Positions 12,085 through 63,933 of a stretch of DNA of 64,000 nucleotides are shown piece by piece. Under the pieces are notes generated by a model. It ran no database searches. It was given only the letters and a program-made list of their open reading frames with translations, and had not been told where the DNA came from. Source of the stretch: an uncultured Planctomycetaceae bacterium (lineage in GTDB: Bacteria > Planctomycetota > Planctomycetia > Planctomycetales > Planctomycetaceae); assembly GCA_963815195.1 (NCBI GenBank), contig CAWFGE010000012.1, positions 128,001-192,000 on the forward strand. The letters are read 5' to 3'. A program made the translations under genes and the position numbers. The first letter of the stretch is position 1. Each line of letters opens with the position of its first letter.

Positions 12085-13315
<1,231 letters not shown>

Positions 13316-49878: not shown

Positions 49879-51735
49879 GTGAGCCACATGACTCAACTGT
49901 TTGCGCTGCGAAGCCTGACGTTTGTTTTCCTCGCCGTCGTTCTAACCGCGGCCCCGGTGCGGGCCGAGCGGGATCCGATTCGGCTGACCCACGGCCCCAT
50001 GCTCGGAAATCCCACCGCCCATTCGATGGACGTGTGGGCGCGGACTTCCGACCCGGGCGAGTTCCTCGTGCACTACGGCACCCACAAAGACAAACTCGAC
50101 GAGATCAGCAAACCCGCGACAACGACCATCGCGCACGATAACACCGGCGTCGCGCATCTCAAAGACCTCCAATCCGACACCCGCTACTATTACCATGTGT
50201 GGGTCAACAATCGGCCGCACGGTCTGCCCGGCAGCTTTCGCACCCTGCCCTCGGCTGAGGACACCAAGAACGAAAAATACAATCCCAAGGGCCTCTATAA
50301 TTTCCGCTTCGAGATCGGCTCTTGTGCGAACCAGAACCCGCTCCACGGCGGCGGACCGGAGCTTCTTACCTATCAACACCTCAACAAGGACTGGGCCGAG
50401 AAAGTCCACTTCCACATCATGAACGGGGATTGGCTTTACGAGGAACTCCGCGACTACCCGCCCGAAGCCTGGCGGCTCACGCAGGGCATCAAGGACTATC
50501 CGCTGCCCGTCCAGGTCATGCCCACCATCGTCGGCGTGTGGGAGAACTATAAGCTCTACCTCAGCCGGGGCGTCGACCTCGCGAAATGGCATCGCAACGT
50601 CCCCAGCTATTTCACGTTTGACGATCACGAACTCGTCAATGACATCTGGGGCTCGTCCGAAGCAGGCAAACGCCATCGGCGGACCGTGTTTCGCGACATC
50701 GGAACCTATGCCTGGTACGATTACCTCGGCTGGGCCGACCCGATGGTTTACAAGCATCCCATCCACTATGGCAAAGGCCAACTCAAAGCCGGCAGCGATC
50801 TGCTCGTCGATGCCGACACCGATTTCTCCAAGCTCCCGCTGGGGGAAATGCTGAACCTGCACGTCCACTGGGGCACGCCGGAAGCGGGCCTTAACGACAT
50901 CAAGTACGACAACGACGAGGGCAATAAAAACTCCTATGTCTATGACATCAAAGAGGTCGTGAACCCGCACACGCTCCGCCTGCACATGCCGGCCAAGGTC
51001 GATGACGAGGTGAGCTATTCCATCGGCCGGCGGAGCTACGCCAAATTCCGCGTGTCGAACTGCGAGTTTTATCTGCTCGACACGCGGGGCGATCGCGACA
51101 TGCACGACGTCCGCCACCGCGACAAGCCGGGCGTCTCGATGATCGGCAAGCACCAGCGGGATTGGCTGTTAAAATCCATGAAGGAAAGCGATGCGGACTT
51201 TTTCTTCGTCGTCTCCACGGTGCCGTTTATGATCCCCCACACCGGCGCGGGCGGCTTCGAGTTCGATGCGGAGAACAAGGAGGAATCCTGGACCGGCTTC
51301 TTCGACGAGCGGGAACTCTTAATCAAGGAATGGGACAAGCTGGGCAAGAAGGTGTTCGTGATGACGGGCGATTTGCATAACAGCTTCGCCATCAAAGTCA
51401 CCGACGACGTGTGGGAGTTCTGCTGCGGCCCCCACAACAGCGTGAACCACGTGCCGGTCTTGGATGAAAGCAATCGCCCCGCCACCGGCAAGTTCAAGTT
51501 CGGCCCCCGCGAATGCGACATCCGCTGGAGCAGCTACATCCTCCCCGACCTGCCAAGATTGCAGCGCCTTTACCCCCACTACTGCGTGGTGCAGGTCAAC
51601 AACGTGTTCAACATGCCCAAAAAACTCGGGGACAAACGCTGGGTCGCCTACCCCCACCCGCAAGTCATCTTCCAATACTTCGACGGCCGCACCGGAGAAC
51701 TCGACTACGCGGAGGCAATCTCGGTCGATCGGTAG
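49879..51735 (+). CDS. phoD: Alkaline phosphatase D family protein
   Basis: THGPMLG, GSC, NGDWLYE, FDDHE, LLDTR, TGDLH. Confidence 0.88.
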   Translation: MSHMTQLFALRSLTFVFLAVVLTAAPVRAERDPIRLTHGPMLGNPTAHSMDVWARTSDPGEFLVHYGTHKDKLDEISKPATTTIAHDNTGVAHLKDLQSDTRYYYHVWVNNRPHGLPGSFRTLPSAEDTKNEKYNPKGLYNFRFEIGSCANQNPLHGGGPELLTYQHLNKDWAEKVHFHIMNGDWLYEELRDYPPEAWRLTQGIKDYPLPVQVMPTIVGVWENYKLYLSRGVDLAKWHRNVPSYFTFDDHELVNDIWGSSEAGKRHRRTVFRDIGTYAWYDYLGWADPMVYKHPIHYGKGQLKAGSDLLVDADTDFSKLPLGEMLNLHVHWGTPEAGLNDIKYDNDEGNKNSYVYDIKEVVNPHTLRLHMPAKVDDEVSYSIGRRSYAKFRVSNCEFYLLDTRGDRDMHDVRHRDKPGVSMIGKHQRDWLLKSMKESDADFFFVVSTVPFMIPHTGAGGFEFDAENKEESWTGFFDERELLIKEWDKLGKKVFVMTGDLHNSFAIKVTDDVWEFCCGPHNSVNHVPVLDESNRPATGKFKFGPRECDIRWSSYILPDLPRLQRLYPHYCVVQVNNVFNMPKKLGDKRWVAYPHPQVIFQYFDGRTGELDYAEAISVDR

Positions 51736-52155
51736 GCGGAGTGCCACGTAGGGACAAGAACATCTGTAGGGCAGGCTCCTGCCTGCCGATTCGGTTTGAT
51801 ACCTGTCCGATGGCAGGCAGGAGCCTGCCCTACACAAACTGGAGCAGCTACATCCTCCCCGACCTGCCAAGATTGCACCGCCTTTACCCCCACTACTGCG
51901 TGGTGCAGGTCAACAACGTGTTCAACATGCCCAAAAAACTCGGGGACAAACGCTGGGTCGCCTACCCCCACCCGCAAGTCATCTTCCAATACTTCGACGG
52001 CCGCACCGGAGAACTCGACTACGCGGAGGCAATCTCGGTCGATCGGTAGGCGGAGTGCCACGTAGGGACAAGAACATCTGTAGGGCAGGCTCCTGCCTGC
52101 CGATTCGGTTTGATACCTGTCCGATGGCAGGCAGGAGCCTGCCCTACGCAAACTG
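51525..52155. repeat. Tandem 314-bp duplication of the phoD 3' end plus downstream REP doublet
   Basis: 51525-51841 equals 51839-52155 except two substitutions (cagcgc/caccgc; tacaca/tacgca). Confidence 0.95.
51766..51833. repeat. GTAG-type REP doublet (second copy at 52080-52147)
   Basis: GTAGGGCAGGCTCCTGCCTGCC and its perfect reverse complement GGCAGGCAGGAGCCTGCCCTAC. Confidence 0.9.
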
Positions 52156-52473
52156 ACAAGTGGAGGTTTAACGCATACCTTGGAGCGACATGTGCCATCT
52201 TATTATTCAGGTGCCAACCGAGGTGCAGGTAGTGATACACTATTCCCGCACGGCACTACGCCTGCAGATATTGTTGACATTGTGCGCGATGCTGCACAGA
52301 AAGCTCCAGCAAATATTGGGCCAGACGATGCCTTTCGAGCCGTTTTGAGAAATGGGAAGGAAGTAAAAGTGCAGCTAAATGGCTATAAAGTAAAATCCGT
52401 GTACCCCACCGTTACGGGCGATGGTTTTGGATTCGATTTGAACACAATTAAACACCTCGTCACAAGGACATGA
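52150..52473 (+). pseudogene. Orphan polymorphic-toxin C-terminal fragment (putative RNase tip)
   Basis: AT-rich; frame reads KLTSGGLTHTLERH...TLFP...VKSVYP from the duplication junction with no convincing start. Confidence 0.55.
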
Positions 52474-52484
52474 TAAAGGATTGA

Positions 52485-53162
52485 TTGATGCCAGCCTTCA
52501 TATCTTACGATTGGCTCGACACAACAGACGATTCAATTGTCCCTAGAGGCATTGGATTACGAAGTGATCTAAAAGATGATCTAGCATCTATCGATTCAAT
52601 AGACAGTGGAATCGTAGTGTTTCAGAATAGTGCAAATCATGAACTCGCTTTTACGCCATTAAGCGTTTGCAAATTTGCAACCTGGATTACCCAGCAGTGC
52701 TCAACCCTAATTCATTCTACGCCAGTTTTCTTAATCGCATCTGAAGCAAACATAGTTTTCGACACGGATGGCGACAGTATTCGTATGTGTGCATATGTCG
52801 ATTCAGTGACTGCAGAATGGCATAGATTTCTTGGAGAATCATTATCTGTTGTTTCTGGTCGTAGACTCGTCACCGCCCATAGGCTACTAGTACCTCAAGG
52901 GACAATCTCTAATGTCAAATACTTTCCAGGCAAAATCGCAATAGATCTTTCAATAAAAACCATTGATTGGATTTCATGTGTAATTGACATCGGAAAACAA
53001 TTTCAAACGCTGGTTCTTGAAGCCAAGAACCTGCTGTCGCAGAATGCTGAAAATTATCGAGCCGAACATCGGAAAGAACTCGTCGATTTAGCGTTTGATT
53101 TTGCGGACAAGTTTCCTGCTATATGCGACAAGATCGAATGGGAAGGAGCGAATAAGTCCTAA
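52485..53162 (+). CDS. AT-rich hypothetical protein, putative immunity protein
   Basis: Directly downstream of toxin-like fragment with AAGGA RBS; acidic; low GC. Confidence 0.55.
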   Translation: MMPAFISYDWLDTTDDSIVPRGIGLRSDLKDDLASIDSIDSGIVVFQNSANHELAFTPLSVCKFATWITQQCSTLIHSTPVFLIASEANIVFDTDGDSIRMCAYVDSVTAEWHRFLGESLSVVSGRRLVTAHRLLVPQGTISNVKYFPGKIAIDLSIKTIDWISCVIDIGKQFQTLVLEAKNLLSQNAENYRAEHRKELVDLAFDFADKFPAICDKIEWEGANKS

Positions 53163-54525
53163 GGAACTGCGCAATAATTAGTTGACCAATGATGCTACAT
53201 TGTTTAAGTTTACAGTTGGGGGATATCATACGGATAGAGTGTGGTGCATGGAAGTGCGACGATGGAAGCGACAATCGCAGACAAGTTTCGGAATCTGTCT
53301 TCTCTGATGAACGAAAAACTCAAACGCCGTTGGGCGGGCTGCGAGGCGATGGCATTGGGGCGCGGCGGCATCTCGGCTGTCGCGGAAGCCACCGGCCTCT
53401 CGCGAACGACGATCCGCAAAGGCATCCGAGAAGTCAACGAGAATTACCCGGAGTTGGCTCAAGAGATTCATGGCCGCATTCGAACACCGGGGGCCGGTCG
53501 GCCGCCTGTCGAACAGGCAGACCCCGCGGTAATCACCGATCTTGAGCAACTGGTATCCCCGGCGACCCGAGGTGAACCCACTTCGCCGCTGCTCTGGACA
53601 TCCAAGAGCACTCGTCAGCTCGCAGAAGGACTCCAGAAGATCGGCCACAAAGTAAGTCCCCGAACTGTGTCGCGGTTGCTCCATGAGATGGGATACAGCC
53701 TTCAGGCCAATCGAAAGACCCGAGAAGGAAAGCAACACCCGGATCGGGATGCTCAGTTCCGACACATCAACCAGAAGGTGAAAAGCTTTCAAAGGCGTGG
53801 CCAACCGGTGATCTCCGTTGACGCGAAAAAGCGGGAATTGGTGGGCGATTTCAAGAACACCGGACAAGAGTGGGAGCCAAAAGGAACTCCGCAAGAAGTT
53901 CGCACGCACGATTTCAAAGACAAAGATCTCGGCGTTGCCATTCCCTATGGCGTCTACGACCAGACGCAGAACCAGGGTTGGGTGAATGTTGGGATTGATC
54001 ACAACACAGCAGAATTTGCCGTCGAGTCGATTCGACAGTGGTGGCGGCGGATGGGGCGCCAGACATATCCACAAGGCGCGAACTTCTGATTACTGCTGAC
54101 GCTGGAAGTAGCAATGGCTACCGATGTCGGCTCTGGAAAGTGTGTCTTCAGCAACTCGCTGACGAACTTGGACTTCGGATTATGGTGTGCCACTTTCCCC
54201 CCGGCACAAGCAAGTGGAACAAGATTGAACATCGCATGTTTTGCCACATCACAGAAAACTGGCGAGGAAGGCCGCTGTTAAGTCGGGGGGTGATCGTGAA
54301 TCTCATCGCTAACACAAAGACCAAGGCGGGCCTCACCATTAACGCGGGTCTCGACGCAAACGGCTATGAACTCGGGATCAAAGTATCCCCTGAGGAAATT
54401 GCCGCACTCAATATCCACCCAGATAAGTTTCATGGTGATTGGAACTACACATTACGCCCCACCTACGAGACATAGTATATATACAACATTAGTTCAAATT
54501 GGATAATTTATTTCTGCGCAGTTCC
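53163..54525 (+). mobile_element. ISAzo13-family insertion sequence, 1363 bp, TAA target duplication
   Basis: IRs GGAACTGCGCAATAATTAGTTGACCAAT vs (rc) GGAACTGCGCAGAAATAAATTATCCAAT; TAA at 53160-53162 and 54526-54528. Confidence 0.93.
53262..54475 (+). CDS. ISAzo13-family DDE transposase, frameshift at about 54078
   Basis: PLLWTSKS, HPDRDAQF, ISVDAKKRELVG, LLITAD, PPGTSKWNKIEHRMF, FHGDWNY. Confidence 0.93.
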
Positions 54526-54660
54526 TAACAGTCTTTCGGGTACCACTGGCAACTTGTTGCCAGTGCTTTTCAGCAGTATGGAATCGGGGGACGTTTCAAA
54601 ACTCGATTGGTTCATCCGATTCACACTGGCAGGCAAGCTGCCAGTGGCACCCGGCGTGAA

Positions 54661-54815: not shown

Positions 54816-55149
54816 CGGTTTTTGGGGCCGAGTGACGGCTTTTCGTCGTCAATCGGCGGTTTGCCGGGGTTCGTTTGCCTTGGAGAAGGTGCCCAGGTCC
54901 GCGGCCCGGAATTCCGGCGGAGGAACACCGTCTCGGTGGGCCGGCCCAAAACGAGGACGTGCCGGTCGGCGTAAGTCCTGATGCTTCAAAGCAGGCGGGG
55001 CATTGGAGAATCCATCGAATTCTAATCTCGATCCGAGACCATCCGTCCGGGAGATGCCCTGCGGGGAGACGGGGATGATAAGTTGAAGAACTTTCTTCGC
55101 CGATTTGGTAGGATGTGCGGTTGGTCCGATCTCAATTGAGGCCACTCGC

Positions 55150-55725
55150 TTGTCCGATGTTACCCGCATCTTGTCGCAAATCGAATCCGGCGATCTCTCT
55201 GCCGCCGATCGCTTGTTGCCTCTGGTGTACGATGAACTGCGGATTCTCGCCGCCCAGCGGATGGCACACGAGAAACCTGGTCGGACATTTTCTGCAACGT
55301 CTCTGGTTCACGAAGCCTATATTCGGTTGGTGGACGGGGATGAATCTCAGAAATGGAACGGGCGGGGTCATTTCTTCGCGTCGGCGGCCGAAGCCATGCG
55401 GCGAATTCTCGTGGAGAACGCGCGGGAGAGGAAATCCGCCAAACGGGGCGGAGATTGGCAACGGATCGAATTGACGGGCCTCGCCGTCGCCGCCGATTCG
55501 CAGCCGGATCGGCTTCTTGACTTGAACGAGGCCCTGGATCGGCTGGAAGCAGAGGACCAGCCGGCGGCAAACATCGTCAAGATGCGGCTGTTCGCCGGAA
55601 TGACTCTCGATGAGTTGGCTTTATCATTGGGGCTCTCGCGAACGGTGGTCCATCGCCAGTGGACTTACGCCCGCGCCTGGCTCAAGCGGGAACTGAGCGA
55701 AGACGCGGTCCAAGACGATTTCTGA
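55150..55725 (+). CDS. ECF sigma factor, planctomycete kinase-associated type (TIGR02999-like)
   Basis: SDVTRIL..LLPLVYDELR..TSLVHEAYIRL..HFFASAAEAMRRILV..WTYARAWL. Confidence 0.93.
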   Translation: MSDVTRILSQIESGDLSAADRLLPLVYDELRILAAQRMAHEKPGRTFSATSLVHEAYIRLVDGDESQKWNGRGHFFASAAEAMRRILVENARERKSAKRGGDWQRIELTGLAVAADSQPDRLLDLNEALDRLEAEDQPAANIVKMRLFAGMTLDELALSLGLSRTVVHRQWTYARAWLKRELSEDAVQDDF

Positions 55726-55809: not shown

Positions 55810-58800
55810 ATGCACGCGACCGATCGACTGGCCAAATCTCTGTTTCTTGATGCCGTCGAAAAAATTCCGCCCGACCAATGGCCGGGGTTTCTCGACTCGC
55901 ACTGCCGTGGCAACGCGGAATTGCGGCGCGAAGTCGAAGGGCTGTTAAGTGCCCACGCCGCTGCCGATTCCCTCCTGGATTGCGCGGTTCCCGAACGCAC
56001 ACAGGAATGGCAACAGCTCATGGAGACGCCCGGCACGCAGATCGGGCTCTACAAACTCCGCGAACAGATCGGTGAAGGCGGCTTTGGGGTGGTGTACGTG
56101 GCCGAGCAGGTTCAGCCCGTGGCCAGAAAAGTCGCGCTCAAGATCATCAAGCCGGGGATGGATACCCGCGAGGTCATCTCCCGCTTTGAATCCGAACGGC
56201 AAGCGCTGGCGCTGATGGATCACCCCCACATTGCCAAGGTGTTGGATGCGGGGACGACCGGCAGTCCCGGCCGCCCCTATTTCGTGATGGAATTGGTCAA
56301 AGGCCTTCCCATCACCGATTTCTGCGACGGAGGGCAGCTCTCGACCCGCGAACGGCTCGAACTTTTCGTGGATGTCTGCCGGGCGGTGCAGCATGCCCAT
56401 CAAAAAGGAATCATTCACCGCGACATCAAACCGTCGAATGTAATGGTTGCTCTCCACGACGACCGGCCGGTCGTGAAGGTGATTGACTTTGGCATCGCGA
56501 AAGTCCTTAGCCGGAAACTGAGCGAAAACACGATCTATACCGCCTACGGTCAGATGATCGGCACGCCCGCCTACATGAGTCCGGAACAAGCCCAGTTGAA
56601 TGCCCTGGATGTGGACACGCGGAGCGACGTTTACTCGCTGGGAGTTCTCTTGTACGAACTTCTGACGGGGACCACGCCGTTTGATATGGAGACGTTTAAA
56701 AATGTCGGCTTTGACGAACTCCGCCGCATGATCCGCGAAGAGGAGCCGCCGCGACCCAGTGCCCGCATCAGCACGTTGAACGCCGCGGTGCTTTCCACGA
56801 TTTCCGGCAAGCGGCAAATGGACCCTCGAAAGCTCAGCCAATCCTTGCGGGGGGAAGTGGACTGGATTGTGATGAAGTCCCTCGAAAAGGACCGCAACCG
56901 GCGATACGAGACCGCGAGCGCATTCGCAGCCGACGTCCAGCGTTATCTGGCCGATGAAGCGGTTCAGGCCTGCCCGCCGTCGGCGATATATCGGTTTAGG
57001 AAGTTCCTACGCCGTCACAAGTTCGCCCTGGGAATGGCATTCGTGATTGGGTTAGCGGTCTTGGTCGCAGTCGCGGCATCGGTCCGGTCCACTCTCCTCA
57101 TTGCCCAAGAGCAACACGTGACGAAAAACGCACTCGAATCCGAGACCCGCGCCAGGAGAATCTCGACGAGACTCGGCAGCGAGAGCGGCGGGACGCGTAC
57201 TTCCATCGGATTTCCTTGGCCCACCGAGAGCTCGCCGATAACAACCTGGGCCGTGCCCTCGAGTTGCTGGAGGAATGCCCCAAAGACCTCAGGCAGTGGG
57301 AGTGGCATTATCTCATGCGGATTTGCCGTGTCGAACCGGTCATCTTGCGGCAGAAAACCGAGGTCAACAGCATTGGCTTCAGCCCAAATGGAGATCGCCT
57401 GGCCTCAGCGGGCGGGGATGGAAACATCAAGATATGGAATCGGCAGACATGGAACGTTCAAACTCTCGAAAACGCGCAGCGCGGGGTTTGTTTCCAGCGT
57501 GGTTTTTCACCCCGACGGAAAACACTTGGCTTCTGTCGGCGCGGATCGGCAGGTCAACGTTTGGGACCTGACAACCGGCGAAAAGGTGTTCGCTCAACCC
57601 TGCGATTGCGTTCATGCTTATGGGACGGCTTATGCCGTAGCGTTCAGCGTCCAGGACCGTCGGCAACTCGCGGTGGGGAATGAAGGCGCGGTGAAGATTT
57701 GGGACTGGAAGAGCGGTCGACTCTTGCAAGATCTGACCGGGCACGACAAGCGTCCCATTAGCGTGGCATTTAGTAAAGAGGGACGCCTGGCGTCCGGCAG
57801 TTGGCAAGGCAGCGTGAAACTTTGGGATGTGAAGTCAAAAGCTGAATTGTTGGGGACCTACGGCGAAAAGGAGGGCTCTCGACATCCCGTGGTTGCACTG
57901 GCATTTAACCGGGATGGCCGACGGTTAGCAACCGCCAGTTACGATCGCCGTGTGGATGTGTGGAACACGAAGACGGGTCAACGATCGCTGACGCTTCCGC
58001 AAGCCGGACTGGTCATGTGCGTCGCCTACAGTCCCGACGGCCGGCGCATCGCCTCTTCCGGCGAAGACCGGACCGTGCGGGTCTGGGACGCGACGACGGG
58101 CCGGGAGATTCTCGGCCTCCGCGGACATGCCGGCAATTGTGGATGTCTGGCATTCAGCCCGGACGGGAGACTCCTCGCTTCTGCGAGCAAGGATGGCACA
58201 ATCCGCATTTGGGACGCGAGTCCGCTCCAAGGTTCCGAAGGCCAGGAAATGAGGACCTTTAGGCAAAGCAGCAACGAAATTTGGACCGTTGCGGTGAGTC
58301 CCGATGGCCGGAACATTGCTTCGGGTGGCTGGAGCATGCCGATCAAAGTCTGGGACATCGAGTCGGGACGAGTGAGTTTCGAATTCAACGGTCAAGGAAA
58401 CATTATCTTCGGTTTGGCTTGGCATCCCAACGGCGTACGGATCGCGTCGGCTGGCAGAAGTGGCGAGATGTTTACGGTCAAAGTCTGGGACGCCCGCACC
58501 GGAAAAGAAGCCTTCTCACTCCCGGCGGGCCCCGAGTACTTCTCTGCGGCGTTTTCTCCCGACGGCAGATCCTTAGTCACGGGAAGCGCCAACCGGTCCA
58601 TTCAGGTCTGGGATGCGGAGACCGGCAAGGCCGTCGCAACGCTGGGGACTCACGACCGGGTCATCCGCGGAGTCGTCTTCAGCCCCGATGGCCTGCACCT
58701 GGCTTCCGTGTGCGATGAGGGGATCGTCAAAATCTGGGACGCGACCCGCTTGGATGCCAAGCAAACACCTCGCCTCAGCGTTCAGGGTTGGATCCACGGC

Positions 58801-59172
58801 CAGTGTTTGAACATTGCCTTCAGCCCGGACGGCGGCCGATTGGCGACAGCCGGCGAGGAAAACACGGTCAAAATCTGGGATGTCGAGACCGGCCAGGAGT
58901 TGCAAACGCTGCGGGGACATACGGGGGATGTTTCCACGCTCGCGTTTAGCCCCGACAACGCGGGACGGTGGATTGCCTCCGCGGGGGAAGACAGCACTGT
59001 CAAAATCTGGAATAGCCGGACCGGTCGGTTGGTGCACAGCTTTCGAGGGCATCTCGGCCTTGTCAGCAGTCTTGCCTTTACACCCGACGGCCGGCGATTG
59101 GTCTCGGGAAGCCGGGATCACACCGTCAAGATTTGGGACGTGACGGGGTTGGATGAAGCGCCCGAACTCTAA
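55810..59172 (+). CDS. Ser/Thr kinase - TM - WD40 repeat receptor; compensating frameshifts at about 57150 and 57478
   Basis: IGEGGFGVV, HRDIKPSN, DFG, GTPAYMSPE; TM; about a dozen FSPDG..WD repeats; LRQWEWHYL linker in alternate frame. Confidence 0.93.
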   Translation: MHATDRLAKSLFLDAVEKIPPDQWPGFLDSHCRGNAELRREVEGLLSAHAAADSLLDCAVPERTQEWQQLMETPGTQIGLYKLREQIGEGGFGVVYVAEQVQPVARKVALKIIKPGMDTREVISRFESERQALALMDHPHIAKVLDAGTTGSPGRPYFVMELVKGLPITDFCDGGQLSTRERLELFVDVCRAVQHAHQKGIIHRDIKPSNVMVALHDDRPVVKVIDFGIAKVLSRKLSENTIYTAYGQMIGTPAYMSPEQAQLNALDVDTRSDVYSLGVLLYELLTGTTPFDMETFKNVGFDELRRMIREEEPPRPSARISTLNAAVLSTISGKRQMDPRKLSQSLRGEVDWIVMKSLEKDRNRRYETASAFAADVQRYLADEAVQACPPSAIYRFRKFLRRHKFALGMAFVIGLAVLVAVAASVRSTLLIAQEQHVTKNALESETRARRISTRLGSESGGTRTSIGFPWPTESSPITTWAVPSSCWRNAPKTSGSGSGIISCGFAVSNRSSCGRKPRSTALASAQMEIAWPQRAGMETSRYGIGRHGTFKLSKTRSAGFVSSVVFHPDGKHLASVGADRQVNVWDLTTGEKVFAQPCDCVHAYGTAYAVAFSVQDRRQLAVGNEGAVKIWDWKSGRLLQDLTGHDKRPISVAFSKEGRLASGSWQGSVKLWDVKSKAELLGTYGEKEGSRHPVVALAFNRDGRRLATASYDRRVDVWNTKTGQRSLTLPQAGLVMCVAYSPDGRRIASSGEDRTVRVWDATTGREILGLRGHAGNCGCLAFSPDGRLLASASKDGTIRIWDASPLQGSEGQEMRTFRQSSNEIWTVAVSPDGRNIASGGWSMPIKVWDIESGRVSFEFNGQGNIIFGLAWHPNGVRIASAGRSGEMFTVKVWDARTGKEAFSLPAGPEYFSAAFSPDGRSLVTGSANRSIQVWDAETGKAVATLGTHDRVIRGVVFSPDGLHLASVCDEGIVKIWDATRLDAKQTPRLSVQGWIHGQCLNIAFSPDGGRLATAGEENTVKIWDVETGQELQTLRGHTGDVSTLAFSPDNAGRWIASAGEDSTVKIWNSRTGRLVHSFRGHLGLVSSLAFTPDGRRLVSGSRDHTVKIWDVTGLDEAPEL

Positions 59173-59245: not shown

Positions 59246-60231
59246 ATGTTGAAGTTCCAAAAGACGCCCGTGAGGCGAGGCTTCACGCTGATCGAATTGA
59301 TGGCCTCCCTCGCGATCATCAGCCTGTTAATTGGCCTCTTGCTCCCAGCGGTGCAAGCCGCCCGTGAGGCCGCCCGCCGGATGCAATGCGGGAACAACCT
59401 GCGGCAGCTCGGATTGGCCGCCCACCAGCACCACGACACCTTTCAGCATCTGCCGCCGGGCATTGGGTATTATCCCACGGAAAACAACGGCGTGTTTGGC
59501 ACTTATTTTTTCCACCTGCTGCCATTTCTCGATCAGGGCAACCTCTTCAAAAACTCGCTGGGGGATGTCACTTTTCCGTCGCCCGTGGGAGTCAGGACGG
59601 TTCATTATCCCGGGAATCAGTCGGTCTATCGCCAGCCGGTGCCGGTGTTCCTTTGCCCTTCGGATCCGAGCGCCCCCGATGGCGTCGTGATCGTCGATGG
59701 TTATACGTTCGGCGCGTCGAGTTACGCCGTCAACGCCTTCGCCTCGGCAAGAAATCCTCTCACCACGGCTCCCATCGAAATTCCCCAGGGCAAAGTTCGC
59801 ATCCCCGAGGACTTCCCGGACGGCACGTCGAACACCATTCTCCACGTCGAGAAATATGCCCGCTGTTCCAATTCTATCCTGCCTGTCCTCGGCGACGGCG
59901 GCAACGCGTGGGCCTATTGCAATTCTCTCTTGTTTCCTTGGCTGCCTCCGCCCATGAATCCGCCCGGTCGAGCGTATCAAACGGGCTTCGCAATCCCCGC
60001 CCTGGCCTTGCGGGTGCGCCGAATGCGATTGGTCCCGGATCGAAGTTTCAAGTGCAGCCCACGCCGTTTTTGGGCAATTGCGATCCGACGCGGGCCTCAA
60101 CGTCCCATGCGGGCATGTTGGTCGGTCTGGCGGATGGCAGCGTGCGAACACTGAATCCCAACATGACCGGCACCACCTGGTGGGCCGCGGTCACGCCTGC
60201 GGGATCAGAAGTCCTCGGCTCGGATTTTTAG
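59246..60231 (+). CDS. DUF1559 prepilin-type N-terminal cleavage protein, frameshift at about 60012
   Basis: RGFTLIEL..LLLPAVQAAREAARRMQCGNNLRQ, DGTSNT, C-terminal H..LADGSV in second frame. Confidence 0.93.
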
Positions 60232-60247
60232 TTGGTCCGAAGAAAAT

Positions 60248-60381
60248 CGGCCGGTGAATCCCAACCGCGAAGAACGGGGGCACCCGCTGGGTCCACCGGC
60301 CTTGTGGCCTCGCCCCGGCGCTCAGTCTGCCGCGCTGGGAACGCGGCATCTCATTTATCGCAGACCACAAGGAGAATTGCC
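60248..60381 (+). promoter_or_regulatory. Structured 5' leader, copy 1
   Basis: Near-identical to 60906-61038; GGCCGGTG/CACCGGCC stem; CCTTGTGG complementary to CCACAAGG at the RBS. Confidence 0.65.
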
Positions 60382-60891
60382 ATGAAGCGTTTGAGTTTTG
60401 CAGCAGGTTTCGCGTTGGCCGGTCTGATTGTTCTGGGAATGACCGGCTCAATTTCCGCCGGGGAGCAGGTGCCGTTTAAAGGCAGCATGGAAGGCGTGCA
60501 TGTGAGCAGGACACCGAGCGAAACGCCCCTGGTGTTTTTTGACGTGTTCGAACTCACGGGACAGGCGACCGAACTGGGGGAGTTCGAGCTGGTGATCGAG
60601 GCGGAGGTGGACTTTAGAAATCTGCCGCCGACCGGCGAGGGAACCCTCACGTTCACGGCCGCCAACGGCGACACGCTGGTCGCCCACGATACCGGAGCAT
60701 CAAGACTCGTCGAACCTGGCCTCGTCTTGATTACCGAGCACGCGACCATCGACCCCGACCGCTCCACCGGTCGATTCGCGGGCGCCACCGGAACCTTCAC
60801 GGTCGAGCGCCTGGCGGACGCAGCCACTGGCGTGACGGGCGTGACCGTCGGTTCCTTCGAGGGGACCATTTCCTCGCCCGGCGCCAACTAA
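60382..60891 (+). CDS. Secreted beta-rich hypothetical protein, paralogue 1
   Basis: AAGGAG RBS, signal peptide, VPFKG, AANGD, TGRFAGATG. Confidence 0.85.
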   Translation: MKRLSFAAGFALAGLIVLGMTGSISAGEQVPFKGSMEGVHVSRTPSETPLVFFDVFELTGQATELGEFELVIEAEVDFRNLPPTGEGTLTFTAANGDTLVAHDTGASRLVEPGLVLITEHATIDPDRSTGRFAGATGTFTVERLADAATGVTGVTVGSFEGTISSPGAN

Positions 60892-60905
60892 CTTTCTATC
60901 CAAAG

Positions 60906-61038
60906 CGGCCGGTGAACCCCAACCGTGAAGAAGGGGGGCACCCTCTGGGTCCACCGGCCTTGTGGCCTCGCCCCGGCGCTCGGTCTGCGCGCTGGGAACG
61001 CGGCATCTCATTTATCGCAGACCGCAAGGAGAATTGCT
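60906..61038 (+). promoter_or_regulatory. Structured 5' leader, copy 2
   Basis: Same stems as copy 1, including CGGTCTGCG/CGCAGACCG. Confidence 0.65.
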
Positions 61039-61524
61039 ATGCAGCGTTTCAGTTTTGCAGCAGGTTTTGTGTTGGCTGGGCTGATCCTTCTGGGAATGAC
61101 CTGCCCCATTTCCGCCGGGGATCAAGTTCCCTTCAATGGAACTTTAGACGGGGACCAGTTTAGGACGCCGCTCGACGATCCCTTTGTGCTGGATCAGTTC
61201 TACATGACGGGAAACTCCACCCAATTGGGAGAGTACGATCTGCTGATCGAAGCGACCGTCAACACCGCCATGAGGACCGCGAGTGGACGCTATTACTTCG
61301 TCGCGGCCAACGGCGATGAGTTGACCGCCGAGTTTGAAGGAAGCTCCATGCCCACCGCAACCCCCGGCGTGATCTTGATTATGGAAATCGCAACCATTGA
61401 CGGCGGCACGGGTCGGTTCGCCGGCGCAACTGGGAGTTTCGTTTGCGAGCGATTGTTCGAAATCGCCAGTGCGACGAGCGTCGGAACCTACACCGGAACC
61501 ATTTCCAACGTTCGAGCAAAATAG
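61039..61524 (+). CDS. Secreted beta-rich hypothetical protein, paralogue 2
   Basis: Same signal peptide and VPFNG, AANGD, GGTGRFAGATG motifs. Confidence 0.85.
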   Translation: MQRFSFAAGFVLAGLILLGMTCPISAGDQVPFNGTLDGDQFRTPLDDPFVLDQFYMTGNSTQLGEYDLLIEATVNTAMRTASGRYYFVAANGDELTAEFEGSSMPTATPGVILIMEIATIDGGTGRFAGATGSFVCERLFEIASATSVGTYTGTISNVRAK

Positions 61525-62805: not shown

Positions 62806-63624
62806 ATGTCACAACAATGGGATGAATTCTCAAAATCACTGGCGGAAGAATCGCTTCCTCGCCGCGAATCCCTCAAGCGTCTCGGCGCGGTCCTCGCCGG
62901 GGCGATCTTCGGTTCTTTGGGGTTGAAGCAGGCTGTCGCGGGACGAAATTCAGACCCCTGCAAGGCCTTCTGTCGGTGTCGCAACAAGTCGCAGCAATCG
63001 CAATGCATCGAGGCCTGCCGGGCCTGCAATAATGACACCAGCCACCTCTATGGCAACTGCGGATACTTCGGCTGTTGCAATGCCACGGTCTGCGAGGACA
63101 ACTATGGCAAGTACTGCACCGACCTCGACCGGGACCCGGACAACTGCGGCAACTGCGGTAACGCCTGCGAACCGCCAGGGCCATACGAATACGTTTTCTG
63201 TGTTTCCGGGGAGTGCCAGTACGTCTGCGAGCAAGGTGCGGTATTCTGCAATGGGAACTGCACCCTCTTGGAAATGGATCCTGACAACTGCGGAGCGTGC
63301 GGCAACGTTTGCGGCGGCTCAACTCCCTATTGCAGCAACGGTGCCTGCACGGAGTGTTCCGCGGGAATGACCCTCTGCGGGAACACATGCACCTATTTGT
63401 ACTATGACAACGACAACTGCGGCGCATGCGGCAATGTTTGCGGCGGATCGACGCCCTACTGCTACCAGGGAGGATGCACGAGCTGTGCCGGGGGAGCCAT
63501 CTGCAATGGGCTTTGCACCGACGTCTACTGGGACTCGGGAAACTGCGGGGGGTGCGGCAATGTCTGCCCACCCAATACTGGCTGCGCTTGGGGCACTTGC
63601 GAAGGGCTTTGCATTGGCTGTTAG
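62806..63624 (+). CDS. Cysteine-rich repeat protein with Tat-like leader (Stig1/MXAN_6577-like repeats)
   Basis: PRRESLK plus hydrophobic stretch ending AVA; four DxxNCGxCGNxC repeats; 42 Cys by manual count. Confidence 0.85.
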   Translation: MSQQWDEFSKSLAEESLPRRESLKRLGAVLAGAIFGSLGLKQAVAGRNSDPCKAFCRCRNKSQQSQCIEACRACNNDTSHLYGNCGYFGCCNATVCEDNYGKYCTDLDRDPDNCGNCGNACEPPGPYEYVFCVSGECQYVCEQGAVFCNGNCTLLEMDPDNCGACGNVCGGSTPYCSNGACTECSAGMTLCGNTCTYLYYDNDNCGACGNVCGGSTPYCYQGGCTSCAGGAICNGLCTDVYWDSGNCGGCGNVCPPNTGCAWGTCEGLCIGC

Positions 63625-63859: not shown

Positions 63860-63933
63860 CACCCCGAGTAGGATTCGAACCTACGACCGCGGGATTAGAA
63901 ATCCCGTGCTCTATCCAACTGAGCTATCGGGGC
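63860..63933 (-). tRNA. tRNA-Arg (anticodon TCT)
   Basis: Minus strand GCCCCGA TAGCTCAGTTGGATAGAGC CGGGA-TTTCTAA-TCCCG GTAGG-TTCGAAT-CCTAC TCGGGGT G; CCA not encoded. Confidence 0.97.

Follow-up and report, generated by a model that had tools for sequence, protein, structure and literature searches.

Introduction

Control in which an antisense RNA acts against a pseudoknot is known from plasmid replication and from type I toxins. In the antisense modules of the phages P1 and P7 (C4) and P4 (CI), listed as RF01695, a hairpin loop is complementary to sequence by the downstream ribosome binding site (RBS), and riboswitches of the c-di-GMP type occur in the context of exported and pilin-like genes. 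For the plasmid systems, an excerpt of PMC10724649 gives IncK RNAI primers that contain CCCGCCAAAG, and a title cited with it names the target motif 5'-rUUGGCG-3'. An excerpt of Weinberg 2010 (PMC2864571) lists Rhodopirellula-1 as a candidate cis-regulatory RNA of Planctomycetes and Proteobacteria.

Here we analyse a duplicated leader in the window, i.e. the whole stretch of 64,000 nt taken from a contig of an uncultured Planctomycetaceae bacterium. This leader is apparently a member of an undescribed family of RNA control elements in Planctomycetota. No description of the element was found in the literature searched, where supplements of motif surveys could still hold one, and the main text of Weinberg 2017 contains no planctomycete term. 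ECF sigma factor groups accompanied by kinases have been described in Planctomycetes, in a text whose excerpt mentions no such element, and the ECF reclassification, in its excerpted parts, gives gene neighbourhoods and finds promoter motifs mostly unconserved.

Results

A duplicated leader behind an ECF sigma factor and kinase pair

The order of the locus is ECF sigma factor, Ser/Thr kinase-WD40, DUF1559, element, cargo gene 1, element, cargo gene 2, with the following genes and Shine-Dalgarno (SD) sequences:

55105..55725, plus strand: ECF sigma factor (TIGR02999 / PF07638), gene 1 of the locus
55810..59172, plus strand: Ser/Thr kinase whose C-terminus consists of WD40 repeats, out of frame over an internal stretch in the assembly (translation read by eye)
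59246..60231, plus strand: prepilin-type DUF1559 gene, in two frames with the break near 60013
60369..60374, plus strand: Shine-Dalgarno AAGGAG of copy 1
60382..60891, plus strand: cargo gene 1, 169 aa, with a signal-peptide-like N-terminus and a predicted eight-stranded beta-barrel
61026..61031, plus strand: Shine-Dalgarno AAGGAG of copy 2
61039..61524, plus strand: cargo gene 2, a 161-aa paralogue

As pointed out in the initial annotation, the leaders (60248-60381 and 60906-61038) are far more alike than the mature coding regions: 126 of 133 nt are identical in the former and 254 of 398 nt in the latter, which encode domains with 47% identity. The first 27 codons of the cargo genes agree at 70/81 nt, and the 100 nt upstream of the leaders at 47/96. 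When the leader was searched against its own genome by BLAST, these two were the only strong copies (E 4e-71 and 4e-55), the third best match having an E of 0.007. The cargo protein, with a pLDDT of 87 for the predicted barrel, has 2314 homologues and no match among Pfam, NCBIfam and PDB sequences; a fold search yielded weak barrel matches alone (E about 0.01), dirigent/AbyU-like in kind.

Fourfold degenerate sites of the two cargo genes agree at 11 of 13 positions in the signal peptide versus 22 of 43 in the mature part. In the trees, the mature domain of cargo 1 clusters with that of another locus, L200 (75% identity, support 100/98), while its leader clusters with the copy 2 leader (94%, 97/93) and the L200 leader sits in another clade. 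At the level of sequence comparison, this conflict shows that element copies of about 120 bp recombine, moving leaders between cargo genes, in keeping with the earlier suggestion of a leader cassette that accepts variable cargo, since the leader moves between unrelated cargo genes. The tree conflict and the contrast at fourfold sites make a recent exchange, of leader and signal peptide together, the best explanation for the near-identity of the window pair. Recent gene conversion, which the initial annotation had named as speaking against its regulatory reading, thus appears to account for the high identity of this particular pair.

Members of the family in other planctomycetes

BLAST found close copies in a genome of the same genus, two of them before unrelated genes. 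An iterated nhmmer search together with a covariance model detected 17 copies at E<0.001 in the own genome, one of them at a contig end, and 7, 8 and 13 copies in three congeners. Among 150 other genomes from the class, at least 17 matched the covariance model, as did at least 3 of 150 from the phylum; 23 candidates per genome were scored, so that misses are weak evidence here. A scan of GTDB contigs with the pattern of hairpin P1 (see below) gave at least 125 loci; among the matches listed, 113 fit the profile and 12 are chance matches, and those that fit are labelled Planctomycetota in 104 cases and other phyla in nine, the latter in MAG bins that are possibly misbinned. In an independent sample of 80 metagenome loci chosen by their cargo protein, 65 of which had enough DNA, the element lies directly upstream in 30/65 (one weak; L222 was missed by the distance rule). 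Another copy was found 3' of the stop codon in 19/80, and copies that are partial or consist of P1 only often trail the last cargo gene. Altogether, 172 distinct copies were aligned, mostly from Planctomycetota, with a patchy, multi-copy distribution.

An Rfam 15 cmscan of the whole window gave only a tRNA and nothing on the element, and scans of 8 loci (E<=10) and 15 loci (E<=5) gave no credible match on it, the best overlap being Scr3920 with an E of about 4. A motif search of the Weinberg alignment archive, covering both places with CCGCCAAG, all 11 with GCAGACC and 17 of the 123 with GGUGAG, revealed no match to the element. Rhodopirellula-1 was considered and rejected: in the first three alignment rows, read by eye, it is a single hairpin with AAC...GUU ends, sharing no P1, loop or pseudoknot motif. 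One pattern match in viral contigs was rejected by the model, and no plasmid record covers 80% of the element.

As a rule, copies stand behind a pair of ECF sigma factor and Ser/Thr kinase and ahead of unrelated genes for exported proteins. Four of the six pairs of ECF sigma factor and kinase in the own genome have elements downstream, comprising 11 of the 17 copies in arrays of 2-4, and elements also lie between successive genes of tandem arrays. Upstream ORFs (n=63) code for TPR, WD40/PD40 or kinase proteins in 34 cases, DUF1559 in three and other families in nine, with 17 having none. A start codon follows 6-47 nt downstream in 96/113 copies, mostly 13-33 nt past GCAGACC, and 86 have an SD. 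The downstream products, read by eye, nearly all begin with signal-peptide-like, prepilin or 'LExLEDR' planctomycete N-termini; complete cargo ORFs range from about 140 to over 500 aa, and their family matches include delta-60, HAF, ELWxxDGT and pilin.

Three covarying helices

In the window, the structural parts of the two copies are as follows:

60249..60301, no strand assigned: hairpin P1 of copy 1, arms 60249-60256 and 60294-60301, conserved loop CCGCGAAG at 60265-60272
60277..60293 and 60935..60951, no strand assigned: 17-nt insert within P1, seen only in elements or remnants of this genus
60307..60347, no strand assigned: hairpin P2 of copy 1 (60314-60321 with 60332-60339) and its extension P2a (60307-60312 with 60342-60347)
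60324..60366, plus strand: pseudoknot stem S2 of copy 1, P2 loop GTCTGC at 60325-60330 with GCAGAC(C) at 60360-60366
60907..60959, no strand assigned: hairpin P1 of copy 2, loop CCGTGAAG at 60923-60930
60972..61023, plus strand: P2 (60972-60979 with 60989-60996) and S2 (60982-60988 with 61017-61023) of copy 2

The stems and complementarities named in the initial annotation are all present: the GGCCGGTG/CACCGGCC arms (60249-60256/60294-60301 and 60907-60914/60952-60959); CCTTGTGG at 60300-60307 and 60958-60965, complementary over AAGGAG to CCACAAGG (60365-60372, copy 1) or CCGCAAGG (61022-61029, copy 2); and GTCTGC (60325-60330), which complements GCAGAC (60360-60365) in copy 1. Folding of whole leaders showed no excess stability over shuffled sequences (z of 0.29 and -0.46), and the P1 part folded modestly better (-1.87 and -2.50). 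Since folding energy does not establish the structure, it rests on covariation in the family.

In the alignments, covariation is seen in three helices, namely the hairpins P1 and P2 and the stem of an H-type pseudoknot (GGUCUGC/GCAGACC) that ends just 5' of the RBS. The first alignment was made from sequence only with MAFFT; of the 119 full-length copies it leaves out the six with long indels and holds 113. Its P1, P2 and S2 cells are 90% paired, versus 38-46% in slid controls, and 20/27 pairs have double changes, a level not reached by any of 500 shuffles. Because 91 of these 113 copies had been chosen by the P1 pattern, so that core and loop of P1 are fixed there, a second alignment was made of 45 copies not fetched by this pattern (13 common to both alignments), with P2a included in the structure. 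Again, 88% of the cells are paired versus 32-40% in slid controls, with 17/31 pairs double-changed and 0/500 shuffles as high. P2a had first been detected by comparing own with cross pairing (-7.0 versus -5.6 kcal/mol, 0/2000). Double changes in S2 were scorable in 139/172 copies; placed on a tree made by FastTree with the S2 strands omitted, they fall into 9 and 6 separate groups, which so short an alignment may over-split. That a structured element exists is thus virtually certain, and the initial annotation was right in proposing an unannotated structured cis element, the homologues covarying and Rfam holding no such family. The GTCTGC/GCAGAC helix, seen there as competing with the anti-RBS pairing, is instead the conserved pseudoknot stem.

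The direction of wobble pairs tells the strands apart. At the three central pairs of S2, mismatches on the plus strand are G.U in 42 cases versus C.A in 5, which assigns the pseudoknot to the mRNA. In P1, mismatches on the plus strand are C.A, which is G.U on the minus strand, in 33 cases (15 of them at the terminal pair) versus G.U in 8. P2 is 82% paired with no strand bias in its wobbles, and fold z-scores are near-equal on both strands (-3.97 minus versus -3.67 plus).

Several variants were observed. In 3/172 copies from two genomes the P1 loop is inverted with the pseudoknot intact, and two of these keep the opposite-strand motif TAnnnT described below; they are natural test variants (L290:1501-1619, L290:2486-2604 and L300:1501-1621). 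A kiss between sense and antisense loops tolerates inversion and is therefore compatible with them. A second subfamily of five own-genome copies (G000 C4:24796, C4:22778, C11:25384, C12:1113781 and C15:172457), with P1 arms of the GGTTGG/CCAACC type and a GGTCAAAG-like loop, lies 100-190 nt before prepilin-type genes and keeps P1, P2, the -10 and the A-run, without pseudoknot and ECF link; hence the two halves of the element are separable. At L032:1984, L205:520, L214:599, L218:883 and L257:2949, P1 occurs 3' of the barrel gene and is followed by a different conserved 3' part that ends in ACCAAGGAG and a new start codon, possibly a third element type.

The 17-nt insert in P1 recurs in otherwise different elements, namely the window pair, L021, L023, L026, L029 and L041 (G000:C16:68660); L021 precedes an unrelated gene. 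It is once in the opposite orientation and always adjoins CAC, and its exact form occurs only in elements or remnants of genomes G000 (that of the window), G002 and G003. An examination of its origin revealed no transposon end, and it may be the footprint of a mobile element targeting P1.

Signals of an antisense RNA gene on the opposite strand

The opposite strand, whose promoter and terminator are absent from the initial annotation, carries the following features:

60240..60246, plus strand: A-run before P1 of copy 1, the U-tail of the predicted minus-strand terminator
60249..60301, minus strand: P1 of copy 1, predicted to be terminator stem and kissing loop
60240..60346, minus strand: predicted antisense RNA of copy 1, about 106 nt including the insert, with inferred ends
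60352..60357, minus strand: family -10 position in copy 1, TAAATG, one base short of the family pattern
60898..61003, minus strand: predicted antisense RNA of copy 2, with its -10 position (61009-61014) showing the same one-base shortfall

Across the family, the conserved CATTNTA directly 5' of GCAGACC reads in reverse as a sigma70-type -10 box on the minus strand, with T94 A92 n A77 A89 T85. Position -14 is a G in 87% of copies, and 87% have a purine 7 nt downstream of the box. The motif TAnnnT occurs in 95/113 copies, in 17/25 protein-selected copies, eight of which thus do without it, and in 21/29 copies found by the model, against a background of 0.8%. TTG at a spacer of 17 occurs in 14/113 copies versus 0-7 at other spacers; this -35 is a weak one, and as it shares positions with the reverse of the SD, part of its signal may come from the latter. 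Similar TTG-17-TAnnnT boxes were seen by eye upstream of the tRNA genes of the own genome. An A-run precedes P1 (5.2 of 8 positions versus 1.9 in the control) and nearly no T follows it on the plus strand, so P1 can be a terminator only on the minus strand; in copy 2 the U-tail is weak because only AAA precedes P1. The implied RNA, which folds into two hairpins, has a length of 87-99 nt in 110/113 copies. Its second loop would be CUUGGCGG, facing CCGCCAAG in the mRNA, and in sequence this predicted antisense loop (UUGGCG/CGCCAA) matches the kissing loops of plasmid Inc RNAs. The P1 loop fits YUNR on the minus strand in 112/113 copies versus 68/113 on the plus strand, a figure that restates the conservation of the loop. 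Taken together, these signals make an antisense gene on the opposite strand likely.

In both window copies the -10 position is occupied by TAAATG, which lacks one base compared with the TAAAAT of a relative. The assembly contains indels, with rpoC in six pieces (G000:C19:19264-23363) and rpoB and alaS whole; in the window, the genes for the kinase (55810-59172), DUF1559 (about 60013) and a peroxiredoxin (about 62050) change frame. Single-base features therefore need read support here, and the short -10 is possibly a homopolymer error. Real decay is also possible, since L027, the locus of a sister genome, lacks the last T too.

Other features of the window

Just upstream of the ECF locus lies an IS-like element (53162-54526) with 29-nt inverted repeats around ORFs 53241-54089 and 54038-54475, which look like a split transposase, presumably of the ISAzo13-like family. 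An exact 300-nt direct repeat with 314-nt spacing (51525-52138) adjoins an EndoU-like ORF (52180-52473), whose match to PF14436 is below cut-off, and what may be an immunity gene (52485-53162); the repeat region may be a polymorphic-toxin remnant or an assembly duplication. Downstream, 62806-63624 codes for a Cys-rich repeat protein with a STIG1-like match and a twin-arginine-like N-terminus, and is followed by a tRNA on the minus strand (63860-63933), which may mark an island edge. An exact 63-nt direct repeat is found at 13061-13123 and 13253-13315, 192 nt apart.

A proposed model of control by the two strands and its alternatives

We propose that the element is a two-strand control module ahead of genes for exported proteins. 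The mRNA strand would probably come from read-through of the upstream operon of ECF sigma factor and kinase, and its P2 loop pairs with GCAGACC in the H-type pseudoknot, shown by covariation, about 13-33 nt before the start codon, where it may aid expression as a 30S loading site or mRNA stabiliser. On the minus strand, a promoter of housekeeping type and an intrinsic terminator formed by P1 and the U-tail, both conserved as signals, would delimit a predicted RNA of about 90 nt. This RNA would be complementary over the full length of P1, P2 and the pseudoknot's 5' strand and leave the SD uncovered. By analogy, the P1 loops would make the first contact by kissing, CUUGGCGG with CCGCCAAG, and zippering would then remove the pseudoknot and leave a duplex open to cleavage. 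The cargo would stay off until operon transcription exceeds the antisense pool. We give an even chance to the proposal that, much as in Inc/repZ or TimR/timP, the cargo gene is silenced by an antisense RNA that blocks the pseudoknot.

Folding of 85-86 copies revealed no consistent change of RBS accessibility driven by pseudoknot or antisense RNA. Opening the RBS window would cost 9.5 (free), 9.3 (pseudoknot) and 9.4 (antisense-bound) kcal/mol (n=86), and opening the SD only 4.3 versus 4.0 kcal/mol, with 35 copies up and 14 down (n=85). Because the opening energies are equal and the antisense RNA ends short of the SD, a role in loading or stability is favoured. Against the full model, the window copies and L027 have no complete -10 as assembled, the two halves of the element are separable in the second subfamily, and the loop polarity is the reverse of that in Inc/repZ; the incomplete pairing of P2 without strand bias and the near-equal fold z-scores of the two strands also count against it. 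As to an ECF promoter inside the element, the alignment gave no fixed-spacing pair, and no shared motif was seen by eye upstream of six ECF genes.

The missing SD switch would also suit a real minus-strand RNA that acts mainly by transcriptional interference, cleavage of polycistronic mRNA or trans targets, with the pseudoknot as a separate 5'-end stabiliser of the cargo mRNA. The second subfamily, which retains promoter, P2 and terminator at its distance from the prepilin-type genes, and the P1-only or partial copies behind the last cargo genes of the protein-selected loci fit this explanation as well. Against it, the span of the antisense RNA includes the 5' strand of S2, and the pseudoknot would necessarily be lost on pairing; we regard this explanation as unlikely.

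A ligand-binding riboswitch, e.g. for a nucleotide second messenger, in which P1 and the pseudoknot form an aptamer and surface or secreted proteins are controlled, would account for the multi-copy occurrence 5' of exported and pilin-like genes, the H-type pseudoknot near the RBS and the highly conserved loop. It leaves the minus-strand -10, G-14, purine +1 and U-tail unexplained and comes without an expression platform, there being neither a plus-strand U-tail nor a covarying anti-SD; moreover, the loop can be inverted and Rfam gives no match, which makes it improbable.

We see equally little prospect for a put/EAR-like signal of processive antitermination, or for an attC-like site that recombines cassettes at the DNA level and recurs between the genes of variable arrays. 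Copies between successive genes of tandem arrays, leaders shuffled among cargo domains and the recurrence of the P1 insert in both orientations would agree with it; against it, wobble directions indicate RNA on specific strands, the distance to the start codon is narrowly set, the element lacks the AAC...GTT ends of the Rhodopirellula-1 rows, and no integrase was noticed in the own-genome arrays read.

The anti-RBS switch of the initial annotation, in which CCUUGUGG pairs over the SD and is freed by a competing helix in a thermometer- or riboswitch-like manner, is very improbable, since the CCTTGTGG helix is not conserved in the family: of 113 copies, just five, all related, have CCTTGT 3' of P1 (L147 has one match elsewhere), six further copies of this subfamily have an imperfect partner or none, CC(A/G)CAAGG occurs in copies without CCTTGTGG (L204, L209 and L214), and within the subfamily the GG of CCTTGT covaries with the 3' side of the P2 extension instead. 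The CCUUGUGG helix does have eight complementary pairs in both copies and L027, is mutually exclusive with the pseudoknot and reaches a probability of about 0.6 in copy 1 without the latter, against 0.12 in copy 2, 0 in L027 and <0.01 with the pseudoknot strands held. Family-wide, pairing of the SD with the linker is marginally above permutation (58/2000 as good), and pairing with L3 (201/2000) or the P1 loop (1808/2000) is unsupported. The anti-RBS helix may at most have a local role in copy 1 and is not the mechanism of the family.

Discussion

Planctomycetes possess many pairs of ECF sigma factor and kinase. The element marks the genes that lie behind such pairs and suggests that these are also subject to post-transcriptional control. 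If the two-strand model is true, antisense-versus-pseudoknot control would extend to a chromosomal leader present in many copies ahead of genes for secreted and surface proteins. Nature provides compensatory, loop-inverted and pseudoknot-less variants for direct tests, and a covariance model now exists for a family absent from Rfam. More speculatively, dozens of interchangeable heads of promoter, antisense RNA and pseudoknot, spread by recombination to unrelated genes for exported proteins, might form a chromosomal, plasmid-style 'incompatibility' network that sets a shared threshold on the output of ECF sigma factors and Ser/Thr kinases, with antisense RNAs of the same seed cross-repressing and loop variants (CCGCC, CCGCG/CCGCT, CCGTC, GGTC and inverted) as separate specificity groups; we consider this unlikely.

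Among known systems, the C4/CI RNAs share with the element a hairpin loop complementary to sequence adjoining the downstream RBS, but the predicted small RNA of the element is on the opposite strand. As an antisense module of this type the element was rejected, an upstream loop target being found in 2/108 copies versus 1/108 in the control, with no Rfam match.

With Inc/repZ, as far as the excerpted sources describe it, the element shares a cis-encoded antisense RNA about 100 bp before the start codon (predicted here from sequence signals), a pseudoknot 3' strand just 5' of the SD, and CGCC/GGCG kissing loops with the same CGCCAA/UUGGCG hexamer. It differs in being chromosomal and multi-copy and in preceding genes for exported proteins instead of rep. 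Its kissing loop (P1) and pseudoknot loop (P2) are separate hairpins, whereas Inc/repZ has one shared loop, and the polarity is reversed, CGCCAA being on the mRNA of the element and not on the antisense RNA (CGCC in most copies, inverted in 3/172). Moreover, the element has strong SDs and no leader peptide, as the alignment contains no conserved leader ORF, and no conserved SD-masking hairpin was detected in the family.

TimR/timP, in the excerpts of PMC11228461 and PMC13000454, has a 5'-UTR pseudoknot that is needed for translation and destabilised by an antisense RNA upstream of the RBS, and we group the standby site of IstR-1/tisB with it. In contrast to timP and tisB/istR, the cargo consists of large or barrel-type exported proteins and not of small membrane or hydrophobic toxins; unlike in TimR/timP, the predicted antisense gene fully overlaps its target and the element is repeated before unrelated genes. 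In the proposed model the element would work most like Inc/repZ and TimR/timP, yet it is a member of neither.
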